This document shows positions 37,383-42,352 of a stretch of DNA of 42,555 nt, piece by piece. The notes beneath the pieces are model-generated. The model saw only the letters and a program-made list of their open reading frames with translations, ran no database searches and was not told where the DNA came from. Origin of the DNA: an uncultured Clostridia bacterium (GTDB taxonomy: Bacteria > Aerophobota > Aerophobia > Aerophobales > B3-G15). The stretch spans positions 1-42,555 of the forward strand of contig CAYRAK010000001.1 of NCBI GenBank assembly GCA_964422215.1. Direction: 5' to 3'. Numbering within the stretch: the first letter of the stretch is position 1; each line of letters opens with the position of its first letter. The position numbers and the translations under genes are program-made.

Positions 37383-39017
37383 TTAACCAAAAATCCAGAG
37401 AAAAAGAGTGAAAAATAAAAATCCTGCTATAAAAAGTAAAAGAGCATTATTGAGGCCGCATCTTATATTTCTTATAAATTTAAGAACTTTTTCCCCTTTT
37501 GAACTTGTAATTAGAAAGTAAAGGAAGAGGCCTAAACTAAAGATAAATATGCTTTGTCCTAATCCAGAAAGGGAATAAATCTGCAAGTTAAAGCTTATCC
37601 TCTCTTTTAAAAGGAGTCTTGAGAGTACTTCTGTTCCAGTGACGGGAAATATTCCTGTAAAAAGGCAAAGCAGGGAGAGAATAATAAGGGGCGCTAACAT
37701 TTTTTTCGGTATTATTTTTTTATTAACTTTCTTTTCTCCTCTTCGGAAAATTTGCGAAAGCTTTATAAAGGAGGCTACTGTACCCACATTAGCTGCAAAA
37801 ATGAGATAGTATAAGATAGGATATCTTTTAAAAGAAAAAAAGATAAGTCTTTTGCTAACATAACCATTAAAAGGAGCTATACCACAGATAGAAAGGGCAC
37901 CTACTAAAAAACTTATTTTCACAAGAAACATTTTTTCTCCATGGATACTGATTTTATTAATTTCTCTTTTCCCTGTAGTGTAAATTGCTGTACCTATTGT
38001 TAAGAATAAAAGACTTTTAAAAAGAGAATGATTTAATATATGGTATAAAGAAGCGACAAGGGATACAGACGTTGCGACTCCAAAGCTTGCTATTATAAAT
38101 CCCATCTGAGAGATTGAGGAATAGGCAAGAAGCTTCTTTGTATCGTCTTGAGCTATAGCCCAGATAATTCCTAAAAAAGCAGTAAATACTCCAATCCACA
38201 TAAAAAGTATTTGAAGGGTTAAAAATGGTATAAAATCTAATATGCGCCATACTGCAAGGAAGGATACTTTAATCATTACTCCAGAGAGAGTTGCAGAAAC
38301 AGGATGAGGTGCAAAGGCATGAGCATCAGGTAGCCAGGTATGAAAGGGAATAAACGCTGCTTTAACTCCTATTCCTGCTATAAGAGATATAAGGGAAAGG
38401 GAAAAAAGAGGAGAGTTTTTCTCAATTTGGGTTTTAAGATGAGATATCTCTCTTAAAGAAAGGATACCCGTTTGCTGGTATAAAAGGGCAATTCCCAAAA
38501 GATAAAATCCAATTCCTAGGCTACTTATAAGAAGATAGTTAAAGCTTGCTATTATGGATTTTTCCTTCTGAGGATAGGCTATTAAAATATAAGATGCGAT
38601 GGAGAGTATTTCAAAAAAGACAAACATATTAAATAGGTCTCCGGTAAGTATAACTCCCTGCATTCCCCCAAGAAGGATCAAAAAGAAAAAATAAAATTTG
38701 TATTCATATTTTTCCTCCCCCATAGCAAAAAGGAAAGCTAAAAGGGTGATAAGCAGTCCTATAAGAGAGCTGATCCAGGCAAGACCATCTATATAAAGGC
38801 AAATTCCTATAGGCTCACGCCAACCTCCCACTGAATAACTAATGGTGCTTCCTTTAAAAACAGGAGGAAAAATAAACGCTAGTAAAATTAGACAGGTGCA
38901 AAGTGCTCCTACAACAATTACCTGAACCTGTTGCTTTGAGAGAAAATATTTTCCTAAAAGGGATATAAAAGAGGCTAGGAAGGGTATGAGGATAAGGAGA
39001 ATAATCAAATTTTCCAT
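37383..39017 (-). CDS. mrpD: Mrp/Mnh antiporter subunit D-like (NuoN/NuoL-type proton-conducting subunit; MbhH-like)
   Basis: 544-aa polytopic protein with antiporter-like motifs (WLPDAHAFAPHPVSA, LLAYSSISQMG). Confidence 0.85.
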   Translation of the reverse strand: MENLIILLILIPFLASFISLLGKYFLSKQQVQVIVVGALCTCLILLAFIFPPVFKGSTISYSVGGWREPIGICLYIDGLAWISSLIGLLITLLAFLFAMGEEKYEYKFYFFFLILLGGMQGVILTGDLFNMFVFFEILSIASYILIAYPQKEKSIIASFNYLLISSLGIGFYLLGIALLYQQTGILSLREISHLKTQIEKNSPLFSLSLISLIAGIGVKAAFIPFHTWLPDAHAFAPHPVSATLSGVMIKVSFLAVWRILDFIPFLTLQILFMWIGVFTAFLGIIWAIAQDDTKKLLAYSSISQMGFIIASFGVATSVSLVASLYHILNHSLFKSLLFLTIGTAIYTTGKREINKISIHGEKMFLVKISFLVGALSICGIAPFNGYVSKRLIFFSFKRYPILYYLIFAANVGTVASFIKLSQIFRRGEKKVNKKIIPKKMLAPLIILSLLCLFTGIFPVTGTEVLSRLLLKERISFNLQIYSLSGLGQSIFIFSLGLFLYFLITSSKGEKVLKFIRNIRCGLNNALLLFIAGFLFFTLFLWIFG

Positions 39018-39355
39018 TCTTCTTTTTTTATTAAATTTTCTATTTGAGAGATACTCAAAGTTTTATATTGACGGTAAATTCTTAAAATTAAGGAAAGAGC
39101 AAGAGCTGTTAGACACACTCCAATAACTATTGCTGTTAAAACTAGCGCTTGGGGTAGGGGATCCACAGGGACACCTTTTATCTCCTTTTCCATAATAGGA
39201 GCAGTTGATCCAGTTAGAGAACCGAGGTAGACAAATAAAATTACAATAGAGCTATTAAATATATTAAGAGCGATAACTTTTTTAATGAGGTTGTCTTTTT
39301 TTATCATTCCCCATATTCCCAGAATAAAAAGAATCACAATCAGGTAAAAAATCAT
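39005..39355 (-). CDS. mrpC: Mrp/Mnh antiporter subunit C (NuoK-like; MbhG-like)
   Basis: VDPLPQALVLTAIVIG motif, 116 aa, 3 TM. Confidence 0.8.
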   Translation of the reverse strand: MIFYLIVILFILGIWGMIKKDNLIKKVIALNIFNSSIVILFVYLGSLTGSTAPIMEKEIKGVPVDPLPQALVLTAIVIGVCLTALALSLILRIYRQYKTLSISQIENLIKKEEWKI

Positions 39356-39416: not shown

Positions 39417-39830
39417 TTATTCACCAAAGAGATAAAAGCATATAAGAGTTATGCCTATTCCTACTTTAAGGCCTATAATGATATTAAGAAAGAAGATAAA
39501 CTGAGCACTAGGAACCTCTCCTGCTTTTCCAAGAGGAAGAAAATTTTCTAGAAAATGCTCACCTGCTACGATTCCTCCAATTCCTATTAAAAGAAAAAGA
39601 AAAAACATCCAGATTTCAGCAAAACCTAAGTTTTTCTCCGGAAAAATTGTTTGAGTTAACCTGACTCCTCTTGTAAGACAAAGAAGGATAACCCCTGAGG
39701 CCAGTACAACTCCTCCTTGAAAACCCCCTCCGGGAGATAGGTGTCCGTAAGATATAAGATAAAGACCAAAAAGAAGGATATAGGGAGTAAGTTTTCTTGA
39801 AACCATATGGACTATTTCTGATTCTTTCAT
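39417..39830 (-). CDS. mrpB: Mrp/Mnh antiporter subunit B domain protein (MbhF-like)
   Basis: GHLSPGGGFQGG motif, 137 aa, 4 TM. Confidence 0.8.
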   Translation of the reverse strand: MKESEIVHMVSRKLTPYILLFGLYLISYGHLSPGGGFQGGVVLASGVILLCLTRGVRLTQTIFPEKNLGFAEIWMFFLFLLIGIGGIVAGEHFLENFLPLGKAGEVPSAQFIFFLNIIIGLKVGIGITLICFYLFGE

Positions 39831-40078
39831 TTTCTTTTCTTCAAAATTACAATAATTCCTGAGACGGATAAAAGTAATACTATTGTCTCACCTAAAGTGT
39901 CAAACACCCTGTAACCTAAGTATATTGAAGATACAAGATTTATAGCTCCTGTCTGTTCCACTCCGCTACTTATAAAGTAATCTCTTAAAAGCTTAGGAGG
40001 AACTAGGGTAGGATCAATTGCTTGAAAAAGAACAATCCCTAAGATTATAAAGATGAGTATCTCACCGATTTGTCTCAT
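39827..40078 (-). CDS. Small Mrp membrane subunit, MbhE-like (N-terminal MnhB-type segment)
   Basis: INLVSSIYLGYRVFDTLGETIVLL resembles the YRG.DTLGE motif. It overlaps both neighbours by 4 nt. Confidence 0.6.
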   Translation of the reverse strand: MRQIGEILIFIILGIVLFQAIDPTLVPPKLLRDYFISSGVEQTGAINLVSSIYLGYRVFDTLGETIVLLLSVSGIIVILKKRK

Positions 40079-40317: not shown

Positions 40318-40614
40318 TTATCTTTTTTTTCTCCAGGGAGTAATTCCTTCCTCCCAAGCTCTTCTTCCTATAATATGGGAAGCAACAGGACTACTTATAA
40401 GGAAAAATAAGGTAATAACTAAGATTCTACCAGTCATTGGAGTAAAGCCTTTAAGAATCATGAAAGCTATAAGGATAGAAAGAAGAGAAGTAATGCCACA
40501 TTTAGAAGATGCTTGAAGACGTGTATAAACATCTGGAAATCGGAGCACACCTATATTACCTAAAACGCCAAAGAATATCCCTAACCCAAGGAAAAAGTAA
40601 ACAGCTACAATCAT
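40318..40614 (-). CDS. mrpG: Mrp/Mnh antiporter subunit G
   Basis: GVLRFPDVYTRLQASSK and PVASHIIGRRA motifs. Confidence 0.75.
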   Translation of the reverse strand: MIVAVYFFLGLGIFFGVLGNIGVLRFPDVYTRLQASSKCGITSLLSILIAFMILKGFTPMTGRILVITLFFLISSPVASHIIGRRAWEEGITPWRKKR

Positions 40615-40658: not shown

Positions 40659-40937
40659 CTAGCTTTTACCTCCCAGATATCTGGCAATGGCAAGGATACT
40701 TATAAATCCAAGTATAGCATAAACGAGAGCTACATCTAAATATATGGAACGATCAAATTTTATTGCTACTGCTACAAGAATTCCTACCACTTGGGCTACA
40801 ACAAGATTTAATCCAATTAATCTATCCTCTGTTGTTGGTCCCACAATTATTCTGATCATACTTATAGTGGATATTCCTACGAGAGCGAAAATAACAAAGC
40901 TAACAACAAAATCTACATCCATATTCTCTTTAACCAT
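40659..40937 (-). CDS. mrpF: Mrp/Mnh antiporter subunit F (the start may be the internal ATG at 40922)
   Basis: IVGPTTEDRLIGLN and YLDVALVYAILGFISILAIARYL motifs. Confidence 0.75.
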   Translation of the reverse strand: MVKENMDVDFVVSFVIFALVGISTISMIRIIVGPTTEDRLIGLNLVVAQVVGILVAVAIKFDRSIYLDVALVYAILGFISILAIARYLGGKS

Positions 40938-41425
40938 GTCTCAAAATGCCCCTTAATTAACCTTCCTGCATAGTGGGAGTGAGTAGTTGAAGCGTTTAAC
41001 CAATGAACAACAAGATGGTCTTCATCTAAATCAAGAGTTAAAGTGCCTGGAGTAAGTGTAATGGAGTTAGCTAAGACAACCCTTGCCAATTCTGATTTTA
41101 GTCGGGTACGAAAGTGGACTATACGAGGGTTTATATCTCCGGAAATTATGGTAAAAGCCATCTTAAAGCTAGCAAGGTAAATTTTAAATATTAAAACTCC
41201 AAAGTATATAAAAAGAAAATATACTTGAGGAAGAAGAGCTCGGCGAGCCACCTCTTTTTCTTCTATGAAAATACTGTAAGTAAAAAGAGCAACAGAGAAA
41301 GAGAATATGGTGCCAAGAAAAAGAGAAAAAAGAGCAAAGGTACCGGTAAACAAAATCCAACCTATTATAAGATAACAGGTGGTTAAAATTATTCTTACAA
41401 TTTTCCACTTTAAAAAAACATCCAT
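40913..41425 (-). CDS. mrpE: Mrp/Mnh antiporter subunit E
   Basis: LANSITLTPGTLTLD...LVVHWL motif. Confidence 0.75.
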   Translation of the reverse strand: MDVFLKWKIVRIILTTCYLIIGWILFTGTFALFSLFLGTIFSFSVALFTYSIFIEEKEVARRALLPQVYFLFIYFGVLIFKIYLASFKMAFTIISGDINPRIVHFRTRLKSELARVVLANSITLTPGTLTLDLDEDHLVVHWLNASTTHSHYAGRLIKGHFETWLKRIWM

Positions 41426-41428
41426 AAT

Positions 41429-41896
41429 TTAGCCTTCTCTTTTTTCTTGTTGTTGAAAAACTTTAAGTATTAACTCTTCTTTTTCAGCCTCAAGAAGGAC
41501 TTTTTTAAATCGAGTGTTGTGAAGAAAGCGAGATAATTTGCAAAGTATTTTCAAATGAAGACTTGCATCTTGTTTCGGCCCAACCAGCAAGAAGATAAGA
41601 TGTACGGGTTGTTCATCAATTGCATCAAATTTAACCCCTTGTTTTTTTCTCCCAAAAGCCATTACAGTTTTATTTACCTTATCTGTCATAACATGAGGTA
41701 TAGCGATTCCTCCTCCTATTCCTGTTGTTCCTATTTTCTCTCTTTCAATGAGGCTTTGTTGCAATTCTTCAGGGTCTTTTATCTTACCTGCTTGAAAAAG
41801 AAGCTCTACCATCTCATAAATAACCTCTTTTTTTCTTTTGGCATTAAGCTCCAATTTAATACATTTGGGATCAAGTATCTCAGATAACTTTATCAT
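41429..41896 (-). CDS. PTS EIIA type-2 domain protein (PtsN/EIIA-Ntr-like regulator)
   Basis: GTTGIGGGIAIPH phosphorylatable-His motif and LIFLLVGP, 155 aa, with no other PTS components nearby. Confidence 0.85.
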   Translation of the reverse strand: MIKLSEILDPKCIKLELNAKRKKEVIYEMVELLFQAGKIKDPEELQQSLIEREKIGTTGIGGGIAIPHVMTDKVNKTVMAFGRKKQGVKFDAIDEQPVHLIFLLVGPKQDASLHLKILCKLSRFLHNTRFKKVLLEAEKEELILKVFQQQEKREG

Positions 41897-41898
41897 AT

Positions 41899-42240
41899 TT
41901 ATTTTTCCTCCTTTATAATGCCCTTAACATAATCTACAGGAATGGTAAAAAGAATTCCAGTTCCAGGTTCTGACAGATTTCCACATATTTTTTCTATAAG
42001 CTTTTCTACCTTTTTTATTTTCTCTTCTTTATCTACCACAGAAAATATTGTCTTATTGTAAGGTTTGTTGCCTTTCATAAATTCTCTAAAATCGGCAAAA
42101 AGGGGAACTTCGTAGGTTAAAAACCTTCCCATTCCTTCAGAATCCAGGATTGTTGCTCCAGGAATTCCTGCCTCTATAAAAGCTTCTAAAATTTCCTCCA
42201 AAAGTTCCTCTTTGTTTAGCACAAAAACAAGCAGTTTCAT
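41899..42240 (-). CDS. PII-like signal-transduction protein (GlnB-fold)
   Basis: 113 aa. MKLLVFVLNKEELLEEILEAFIEAGIPGATILDSEGMG parallels the GlnB MKKIEAII...VEAGIGGMTVTEVKGFG, with a T-loop-sized insert after it. Confidence 0.55.
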   Translation of the reverse strand: MKLLVFVLNKEELLEEILEAFIEAGIPGATILDSEGMGRFLTYEVPLFADFREFMKGNKPYNKTIFSVVDKEEKIKKVEKLIEKICGNLSEPGTGILFTIPVDYVKGIIKEEK

Positions 42241-42248
42241 CGCTTTTT

Positions 42249-42286
42249 AATATACCTTGCATTCAGACTAAAGTCAAACTTTGACT
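42249..42286 (-). promoter_or_regulatory. Putative promoter of the PII-EIIA-mrp operon (TTGACT-17-TATATT on the minus strand), overlapped by a 15-bp palindrome
   Basis: agtcaa at 42272..42277, aatata at 42249..42254, and the palindrome AGTCAAACTTTGACT at 42272..42286. The -10 ends 8 nt before the ATG. Confidence 0.35.
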
Positions 42287-42352
42287 TGCCGAAATCGGGA
42301 AGTTTTAAGAAAGAAATGAAAAAATATTGTAATGTTTTAGACTCTGTTTTTC

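Follow-up and report, generated by a model that had tools for sequence, protein, structure and literature searches.

Organisation of the locus

The stretch of DNA analysed here (the window) comprises the 42,555 nucleotides (nt) from position 1 to 42,555 of contig CAYRAK010000001.1 of assembly GCA_964422215.1, deposited as an uncultured Clostridia bacterium and placed by GTDB in the Aerophobota. On its minus strand, ten co-oriented and tightly packed open reading frames (ORFs), called between positions 37383 and 42240, form one operon (Table 1). The first gene encodes a PII-like signalling protein, the second a stand-alone EIIA protein of the phosphotransferase system (PTS), and the remaining eight the subunits of an Mrp cation/proton antiporter. 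The present work concerns the two leading genes and their relation to the antiporter. As stated in the preliminary description of this DNA, these genes are separated from each other and from mrpE by very short spacers: 2 nt between the PII-like stop codon and the ATG of EIIA, and 3 nt between the EIIA stop codon and the ATG of mrpE. In the rest of the operon, as calculated from the ORF coordinates, adjacent genes either overlap, by 25, 4, 4 or 13 nt, or are 12-61 nt apart.

The eight Mrp genes follow the Mbh order E-F-G-MbhD-MbhE-B-C-D and do not include MrpA. They encode a single PF00361 protein, and neither the N-terminal module of MrpA nor a redox module is present. By its domain order the module is assigned to the stand-alone Mrp antiporters (cation/proton antiporter family 3, CPA3), of the group 3 or Mbh-ordered type, and its antiport activity is predicted. 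In the MrpD subunit the PF00361 match ends at residue 402 and is followed by a hydrophobic C-terminal extension of about 140 residues, which might stand in for the missing helices of MrpA or MbhI. The same genome carries a second Mrp-like cluster (contig C120, 189-3883), composed of an MrpD-like protein (493 aa), MrpE, MrpF and MrpG and continuing with a 4Fe-4S protein and a hydrogenase maturation protease, both named by eye. This cluster is probably the Mrp-like arm that closes an operon for a membrane-bound hydrogenase of the Mbh type. It contains neither a PII-like nor an EIIA gene; thus, within one genome, the pair accompanies only the stand-alone antiporter and not its hydrogenase-linked relative, and on this ground we rejected the possibility that the pair is part of a hydrogenase-type Mbh complex.

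The operon is preceded by a promoter-like site found by a consensus scan, a pattern match only, and its -10-like box ends 8 nt upstream of the ATG of the PII-like gene, so that the leader would be short or absent. No Shine-Dalgarno sequence was seen at the PII-like start (window 42241-42290, minus strand), GGAGG-type sites being present at internal genes, and in the same region the -35 box is overlapped by the palindrome AGTCAAACTTTGACT. A TATAAT-like box located 7-15 nt before the PII-like start codon is common in related loci of other phyla (loci with such a box: L016, L017, L025, L031, L037, L044, L047, L049, L053, L074, L085 and L091), and the operon may therefore be generally leaderless or short-leadered. 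The next non-coding promoter-like site on the operon strand (37265-37238) lies after mrpD and belongs to a nitroreductase gene, which is located 190 nt downstream of mrpD. The other neighbours of the operon in the window are YicC, Gmk, RACo and LpxI. No nitrogen-assimilation genes are present among the window neighbours, those within the operon being Mrp genes; no dedicated search for them was made. The absence of further PTS genes from the vicinity, noted in the preliminary description, was corroborated by whole-genome searches, in which enzyme I, a second EIIA and the only HPr-like match all fell on other contigs. The preliminary description thus proved right in all details open to checking.

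Table 1. Features of the PII-like/EIIA/Mrp operon, with positions in the window and the profile or pattern on which each assignment is based
Feature	Position	Strand	Basis
Promoter-like site TTGACT-17-TATATT	42249..42277	-	Consensus scan, 10/12 matches; pattern match only
PII-like signalling protein, 113 aa, operon gene 1	41899..42240	-	PF00543, 31.5 bits
Stand-alone PTS EIIA type-2 protein (PtsN-like), 155 aa	41429..41896	-	PF00359, 141.1 bits
MrpE / MbhA-like subunit	40913..41425	-	PF01899, 117.6 bits
MrpF / MbhB-like subunit	40659..40937	-	PF04066, 60.6 bits
MrpG / MbhC-like subunit	40318..40614	-	PF03334, 80.7 bits; TIGR01300, 80.1 bits (cut-off 63.1)
MbhD-like subunit, counterpart of MrpA C-terminal helices	40075..40305	-	PF13244, 73.2 bits
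MbhE-like subunit	39827..40078	-	PF20501, 26.3 bits (cut-off 27); position and size kept in relatives
MrpB / MbhF-like subunit (MnhB)	39417..39830	-	PF04039, 86.2 bits
MrpC / MbhG-like (NuoK-like; MnhC) subunit	39005..39355	-	PF00420 (Oxidored_q2), 86.6 bits
MrpD / MbhH-like subunit, 544 aa, last operon gene	37383..39017	-	PF00361 (Proton_antipo_M), 203.2 bits

The PII-like protein

The product of the first gene matched the P-II family PF00543 over residues 1-109 (E 2.4e-7), with a score that exceeds the cut-off of 25 bits by a small margin; the precomputed PF00543 match is absent from many members of its family, and no NCBIfam family was matched by the protein. The AlphaFold2 model, calculated for a single chain from a 36-sequence alignment, had a predicted local distance difference test (pLDDT) score of 87.6 and the topology beta-alpha-beta, two short helices, beta-alpha-beta, with the elements E2-8, H11-23, E30-34, H37-44, H46-55, E62-69, H72-86 and E95-101. 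In a Foldseek search against the PDB all of the top 50 chains were PII or PII-like, with probability 1.00 and TM-scores of 0.56-0.64; nearly all of them were GlnB or GlnK, and the highest TM-score belonged to PotN. The GlnB/PII fold that had been proposed from the sequence is thus predicted with confidence. The T-loop-sized insert proposed with it is also present: in alignments to PII chains from the PDB, the stretch that joins strands 2 and 3 (residues ~35-61) exceeds a canonical T-loop by about 5 residues, and it was modelled as two short helices (residues 37-55). Two PDB entries (23eo and 23eq) contain a 120-aa chain described as 'Signaling protein' that gave a weak full-length match to our protein (E 0.039) and may be a recently solved PII-like protein.

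Functional residues were read from the alignments to PDB PII chains, in E. coli GlnB numbering, with the ATP/ADP residues G87-D-G-K90, R101 and R103 and the 2-oxoglutarate contacts Q39 and K58 taken as the criteria of a canonical GlnB or GlnK. The protein keeps G-x-T, G-x-G-R and an equivalent of Lys58. The canonical ligand contacts are otherwise lost: K90 is replaced by Ile96, Q39 by Phe40, and R101 and R103 have no basic equivalent. Since the fold and motifs of PII are kept and the ligand contacts are lost, we regard the protein as a member of the PII superfamily and not as a canonical nitrogen PII; GlnB and GlnK were ruled out as its identity by the missing ligand residues and the lack of a nitrogen context. 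No second PF00543 match was obtained in the genome, and no canonical GlnB or GlnK was detected there. Because the canonical ATP and 2-oxoglutarate residues are missing, nucleotide status as the input signal of the protein is a guess.

The EIIA protein

The assignment of the second gene product as a stand-alone type-2 EIIA with an intact IAIPH site was sustained by its match to PF00359 and by the conservation of the site. The closest solved structures are PtsN proteins, and the GIAIPH motif, with His68, aligns exactly with GIAIPH of E. coli PtsN (1A6J, 68.9 bits). His68 is the putative phospho-acceptor. Together with His114 and Arg123 it is invariant in all 75 Mrp-linked EIIA sequences compared, namely 74 orthologues and the protein of the window; two loci of Fermentibacterota have no called ORF, though tblastn finds an EIIA there. 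The score against the PtsN model TIGR01419 was 88.2 bits, under the cut-off of 138.7, and for this reason we call the protein PtsN-like and not PtsN.

The genome encodes another EIIA (contig C97, 4053-4508) directly after hpf, which is the classical position of ptsN. This second EIIA shares 40% identity with the Mrp-linked one and also remained under the TIGR01419 cut-off (90.4 bits); thus, the model may simply not reach the Aerophobetes phylum. The rpoN-hpf-ptsN context is not that of the Mrp-linked EIIA, which sits in the Mrp operon.

Recurrence of the linkage across phyla

The same ten-gene array, with unrelated flanks, was found to be headed by three diverse homologues of the PII-like protein, from Spirochaetales, from an unclassified bacterium and from a metagenome-assembled genome (MAG) of Spirochaetaceae. 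One genome from each GTDB species was scanned with a pattern based on a 7-sequence alignment; 262 relatives were obtained, and the analysis was made on the 80 best loci. In all 80 the PII-like gene immediately precedes mrpE-F-G and the genes that follow, with the start of mrpE ~340-1070 nt past the PII-like start and with unrelated flanking genes. EIIA lies between the two in 76 loci; in the remaining four it is missing (two loci of Aerophobetes) or displaced (two loci of Moduliflexota). The loci come from at least five phyla, which include Aerophobetes, Spirochaetota, Moduliflexota (KSB3), Fermentibacterota and Fibrobacterota (Chitinispirillum), and cultured carriers such as Sphaerochaeta halotolerans and Sphaerochaeta sp. 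S2 are among them. The three-part linkage noticed in the window therefore recurs in other genomes. As the scan was built on the peptide motifs of the Mrp-linked clade itself, it is biased to that clade, and the 80/80 count says nothing about the wider family, which was sampled separately; the 36-sequence alignment of diverse PII-like proteins offered no stretch conserved enough for a pattern scan.

The close homologues of the PII-like protein belong to Candidatus Aerophobetes, the phylum of the window. Among 31 representative genomes of this phylum, a PII-like match was found in 18 and MrpE in 22. The mrpE genes fell into two classes: those with lower PF01899 scores (105-121 bits) stood beside the PII-like gene on the same contig in 16 genomes, with one further case split by contig ends, and those with higher scores (134-148 bits) were never PII-linked. 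Three MAGs labelled 'uncultured Clostridia bacterium' (L022, L024 and L025) encode PII-like proteins 83-90% identical to those of Aerophobetes, and the L025 protein groups with them in the tree described below, so the taxonomic labels of these MAGs look doubtful.

Outside Aerophobetes the PII-like protein is the best-conserved product of the operon, with a median identity of 71% to the protein of the window; the corresponding values are 59% for MrpG, 56% for MrpE, 55% for MbhD, 54% for MbhE, 51% for both MnhB and MnhC, 49% for MrpF, 45% for EIIA and 41% for MrpD. Residues 28-67 of the PII-like protein, which take in strands 2 and 3 with the T-loop equivalent between them, are near-invariant in the Mrp clade (G.TILDSEGMG.FL.YE.PLFA.F..FMKGNKPYNKTI.SV). 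Outside this clade few conserved positions are left in the segment, P46 and F48 among them, and across the wider family only G28, T30, S34, G36, P46 and F48 are conserved at 90% or more. This pattern fits a contact surface that has been adapted, within the Mrp clade, to a partner which is itself conserved.

Relatives of the pair beside other antiporters

The wider family of the PII-like protein comprises 843 clusters at E<=1e-3 and 326 at E<=1e-10 in a library of representatives at 50% identity. Some of its members are fused to EIIA, as in the representative clusters P0199 and P0223, with the histidine of the AIPH motif kept. Two further fusions (P0274 and P0271, from a KSB1 bacterium and a metagenome contig) are encoded directly upstream of genes for PF00999 (Na_H_Exchanger) antiporters of 405-410 aa. 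Two paralogues from the phylum of the window also stand next to such antiporters: one (43% identity) follows a PF00999 gene, and the other (39% identity) lies in a row of genes with the order EIIA, PII-like, PF00999. With ~400-430 aa, the PF00999 partners consist of a bare membrane domain, with a Pfam match over nearly the full length and no cytoplasmic regulatory domain.

The separate sample of the wider family consisted of 301 evenly drawn genomes of Spirochaetota; 42 of them had a family member, and the best 30 loci were analysed. An EIIA was present in every one, adjacent to the PII-like gene in 16 and fused to it in 14. In 22 loci an antiporter abuts the pair (4 Mrp and 18 PF00999), and the genes of pair and antiporter often have overlapping start and stop codons. 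The CPA2-type neighbours at loci L125 and L129 are PF00999 by Pfam, and that at L126, near-identical to the one at L125, was counted without a scan of its own. From these neighbourhoods and fusions we define a new PII-like subfamily, with 326 matching clusters at E<=1e-10, that is, as judged from gene context in the loci sampled, associated with antiporters in general and not only with Mrp.

In a maximum-likelihood tree of 54 PII-like domains, the Mrp-linked proteins form one supported clade (95/88) with short branches, nested among the PF00999-linked ones. The branching within this clade departs from taxonomy: for example, Fermentibacterota (L057 and L059 versus L078) fall within Spirochaetaceae with full support. 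This suggests that the whole PII-like/EIIA/Mrp operon was transferred horizontally between phyla. At one locus (L123, genome G169) the pair lies inside the Mrp operon, in the order mrpE-F-G-mbhD-EIIA-PII-mnhB-mbhE-mnhC-mrpD. Its PII-like domain branches outside the Mrp clade on a long branch, and the placement is uncertain. Both proteins of L123 are divergent, and it seems that a pair was recruited to Mrp independently at this locus.

The pair could also be merely co-expressed with the antiporter. The PII-like protein and EIIA would then be general signalling proteins, transcribed with Mrp through a shared stress response and making no contact with it, and their targets would lie elsewhere (K+ uptake, kinases, metabolic enzymes), as for E. 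coli PtsN, which has several known targets (PMC13104625). In agreement with this, no antiporter lies within 1.5 kb of 8 of the 30 pairs from Spirochaetota, of which six are located beside rpsF-ssb, and for one protein of the Mrp clade no Mrp is encoded within 6 kb. Pairs of this kind indicate that the two proteins can act in trans or on other targets. The six loci beside rpsF-ssb (L112, L114 and L116-L119) come from one low-GC spirochaete lineage, in which EIIA and the PII-like gene are followed by rpsF and ssb with no transporter, and the pair of this lineage may act in trans. However, co-expression alone explains poorly that the PII-like gene abuts mrpE in all 80 loci across phyla with unrelated flanks, that the L123 pair is embedded within the Mrp operon, and that two unrelated families of antiporters have acquired the pair, with start and stop codons often overlapping; moreover, the genome has the separate PtsN-like EIIA linked to hpf for general duties. 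We therefore consider this explanation unlikely.

Phosphorelay and signalling components of the genome

The assembly that contains the window has 1.59 Mb in 206 contigs and is 92.8% complete. It encodes an enzyme I (684.6 bits), which was also found in all of 20 other operon-bearing genomes versus 7 of 14 control genomes. A strong HPr was present in 17 of these 20. In the genome of the window, HPr was detected only as a weak domain (20.9-23.7 bits). This HPr-like domain (PF00381), with the histidine-containing motif ILHLRPAS, forms the C-terminus of a 410-aa protein of unknown family (contig C11, 140-1372, minus strand), which might be an unusual phosphocarrier; similar weak HPr matches occur in open frames of 410-595 aa of the operon-bearing genomes G012, G018, G004, G005, G009, G014 and G017. 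A search of the genome for EIIC permeases, which covered the PF02378 family only, gave no match, and for this reason the PTS of this organism looks purely regulatory rather than sugar-transporting; on the same evidence, with the same limit, we ruled out a sugar-PTS EIIA serving a permease.

These components bear on another explanation of the operon, in which the PII-like protein and EIIA are constitutive structural or assembly parts of the MrpA-less Mrp, for example a cytoplasmic cap, and not signal-responsive switches. In favour of this, the genes keep a fixed order, with a spacing that would suit translational coupling; the PII-like gene is the most conserved of the operon, as might be expected for a tightly packed subunit, and its T-loop equivalent is predicted to be structured and not a floppy loop. 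On the other hand, the invariant phospho-histidine and active site of EIIA, together with the ever-present enzyme I, point to phospho-signalling. EIIA is missing or displaced in 4 of the 80 loci, the homologous stand-alone Mrp of Pyrococcus furiosus works without either protein (PMC8415708), and the same pair serves single-polypeptide PF00999 antiporters. A purely structural role is, in our estimate, very unlikely.

The genome also encodes a protein with a DAC domain. This is of interest for a third explanation, in which the PII-like protein is the receptor of a cyclic nucleotide such as cyclic di-AMP (c-di-AMP), like PstA/DarA and SbtB, and couples K+ or osmotic signalling to antiport, EIIA being a secondary input. 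In other bacteria, transporters of K+ and cation/proton transporters are under the control of c-di-AMP, a nucleotide that PII-like proteins are able to bind (PMC4316997, PMC8654305, PMC10636490); the absence of the canonical ATP-phosphate contacts from the PII-like protein, as read from our alignments, is in line with a different ligand of this kind. The structural neighbours speak against it, as canonical GlnB/GlnK and PotN were nearest and no PstA or SbtB chain appeared in the Foldseek top 50, and so does the EIIA gene, whose adjacency or fusion in 30 of 30 sampled members argues for a core partner. Taken together, this makes a second-messenger receptor improbable as the main function.

A proposed gate on cation/proton antiport

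We propose instead that the products of the two leading genes form a two-component module by which the stand-alone Mrp Na+(K+)/H+ antiporter, encoded by the eight genes that follow, is controlled. We consider it rather probable that the pair acts as a post-translational gate on Mrp antiport, by analogy with PtsN-YcgO and SbtB-SbtA, and it is probably a switch that ties the energy or carbon state of the cell to its ion and pH balance. In this proposal, enzyme I would phosphorylate His68 of EIIA via HPr or NPr, and the phosphorylation state of EIIA would report the phosphoenolpyruvate/pyruvate state and thereby carbon and energy. Nearest to the transporter would be the PII-like protein, presumably trimeric and with a small ligand, since it is the product of the most conserved gene and stays with Mrp where EIIA is absent or displaced. 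Depending on its phosphorylation state, EIIA would bind the PII-like protein or compete with it, and together the two proteins would block Mrp at its cytoplasmic face or set it free. In this scheme, the PII-like protein could play in trans the role that the CorC domain of YcgO plays in cis for unphosphorylated PtsN; alternatively, it could act as a plug, as SbtB does for SbtA and GlnK for AmtB. The purpose of such a gate would be to keep an antiporter that dissipates the proton or sodium motive force from running when energy is short.

The proposed control of antiport by the pair is supported at the level of gene organisation by the EIIA-PII-like fusions and by the paralogous pairs beside PF00999 antiporters, the fusions arguing that the two proteins work as one unit. 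Extended to these partners, the proposal becomes that of a portable, physically interacting gate, carried as two genes or as one fusion protein and placed on unrelated antiporters (Mrp and PF00999) in many phyla. The PII-like protein would serve as a trans adaptor, the counterpart of CorC, and integrate a small-molecule signal, and histidine phosphorylation of EIIA by a permease-less regulatory PTS would set the on/off state. This wider proposal we hold as tentative, possible rather than probable.

Several points weigh against the gate. In addition to the pairs without a nearby antiporter and to the loss of canonical ligand contacts in the PII-like protein, HPr is represented in this genome, at 92.8% completeness of the assembly, by the weak domain only, so that the phosphorelay to EIIA is documented there in part. 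Gene order, fusions and analogy make up the case for contact between the PII-like protein, EIIA and Mrp. Because the architectures of Mrp and PF00999 antiporters are unrelated, it is unlikely that both are docked in one common mode. AlphaFold2 applied to a natural fusion (5 sequences) gave no confident arrangement of the two domains, with a predicted TM-score (pTM) of 0.62, a pLDDT of 73 and low confidence in the linker and T-loop. Finally, the homologous stand-alone Mrp of P. furiosus has no such regulators (PMC8415708), which means that they are not needed for Mrp function as such.

Comparison with known systems

The closest parallel on the EIIA side is found in E. coli, where PtsN in its unphosphorylated form inhibits K+/H+ exchange by the CPA1 antiporter YcgO/CvrA, to whose CorC domain it binds (PMC11808508; bioRxiv 10.64898/2026.08.14.744764). 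Common to both cases is the link of a PtsN-like EIIA with a GIAIPH site to a cation/proton antiporter. Binding of PtsN in E. coli depends on its phosphorylation state, and PtsN acts via a small cytoplasmic adaptor domain, CorC. Here the putative target is the multi-subunit Mrp (CPA3), which has no cytoplasmic domain, the EIIA gene belongs to the antiporter operon and not to rpoN-hpf, and a PII-fold protein always accompanies EIIA or is fused to it.

On the PII side, proteins of the family lock transporters in GlnK-AmtB and SbtB-SbtA (PMC10710835). As in these systems, the PII-fold gene is located directly beside that of the putative target transporter, and contact is likely to be made by the conserved stretch that joins strands 2 and 3. 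Unlike in these systems, the putative targets are cation/proton antiporters and not ammonium or bicarbonate carriers. The PII-like protein also differs from GlnK and SbtB by the missing canonical ATP and 2-oxoglutarate residues and by a T-loop equivalent that is longer and predicted to be helical, and neither of them has a counterpart to the obligatory pairing with EIIA seen here.

For the antiporter itself, the nearest relatives are the Mrp-like arm of Mbh and the stand-alone group 3 Mrp of P. furiosus (mrpEFGBB'CD), which uses Na+ and serves pH homeostasis (PMC8415708). The order E-F-G-(MbhD/E)-B-C-D and the single MrpD-type subunit are shared with both, and the archaeal Mrp likewise has neither the MrpA N-terminal module nor a redox module. 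It differs in that its operon contains no PII-like or EIIA genes, and in that the B region is split in the window into three genes (MbhD, MbhE and MnhB).

A PII-like gene next to a membrane subunit of the PF00361 type also has a precedent. The PII-like protein CPII is encoded beside DAB, whose DabB subunit is MrpD/NuoL-like, in the carbon-concentrating loci of chemoautotrophs. In contrast to those loci, the window has no DabA (PF10070-type) and no carboxysome context, and a full set of Mrp genes and an EIIA are present instead. Neither sbtA nor dabA/dabB was found adjacent to the pair in the window or in the 80 loci, where the neighbours are Mrp subunits.

The preliminary description had presented the arrangement as one not known to be described. 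Our literature search, from whose coverage subscription journals were mostly absent, found no account of it and no PII-like or EIIA protein linked to Mrp or CPA antiporters, and a review of Mrp antiporters names neither a PII-like nor a PTS regulator of Mrp. The combination proposed here is that of a PII-type plug with PtsN-type phospho-control, each half of which is already known.

Significance

Mrp antiporters have a central part in the homeostasis of Na+ and pH, and they represent the evolutionary core of complex I-type pumps. If the proposed gate is real, the PII and PTS-Ntr families would be extended to a new class of targets, and it would become clear how antiporters without RCK or CorC domains are switched. 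The pair would be a defined and testable system, as the proteins are small and soluble, there are culturable carriers such as Sphaerochaeta halotolerans, and antiport is assayed routinely in vesicles of E. coli laboratory strains deficient in antiporters. It would then represent a general, so far undescribed coupling of ion and pH homeostasis to the carbon and energy status of the cell.

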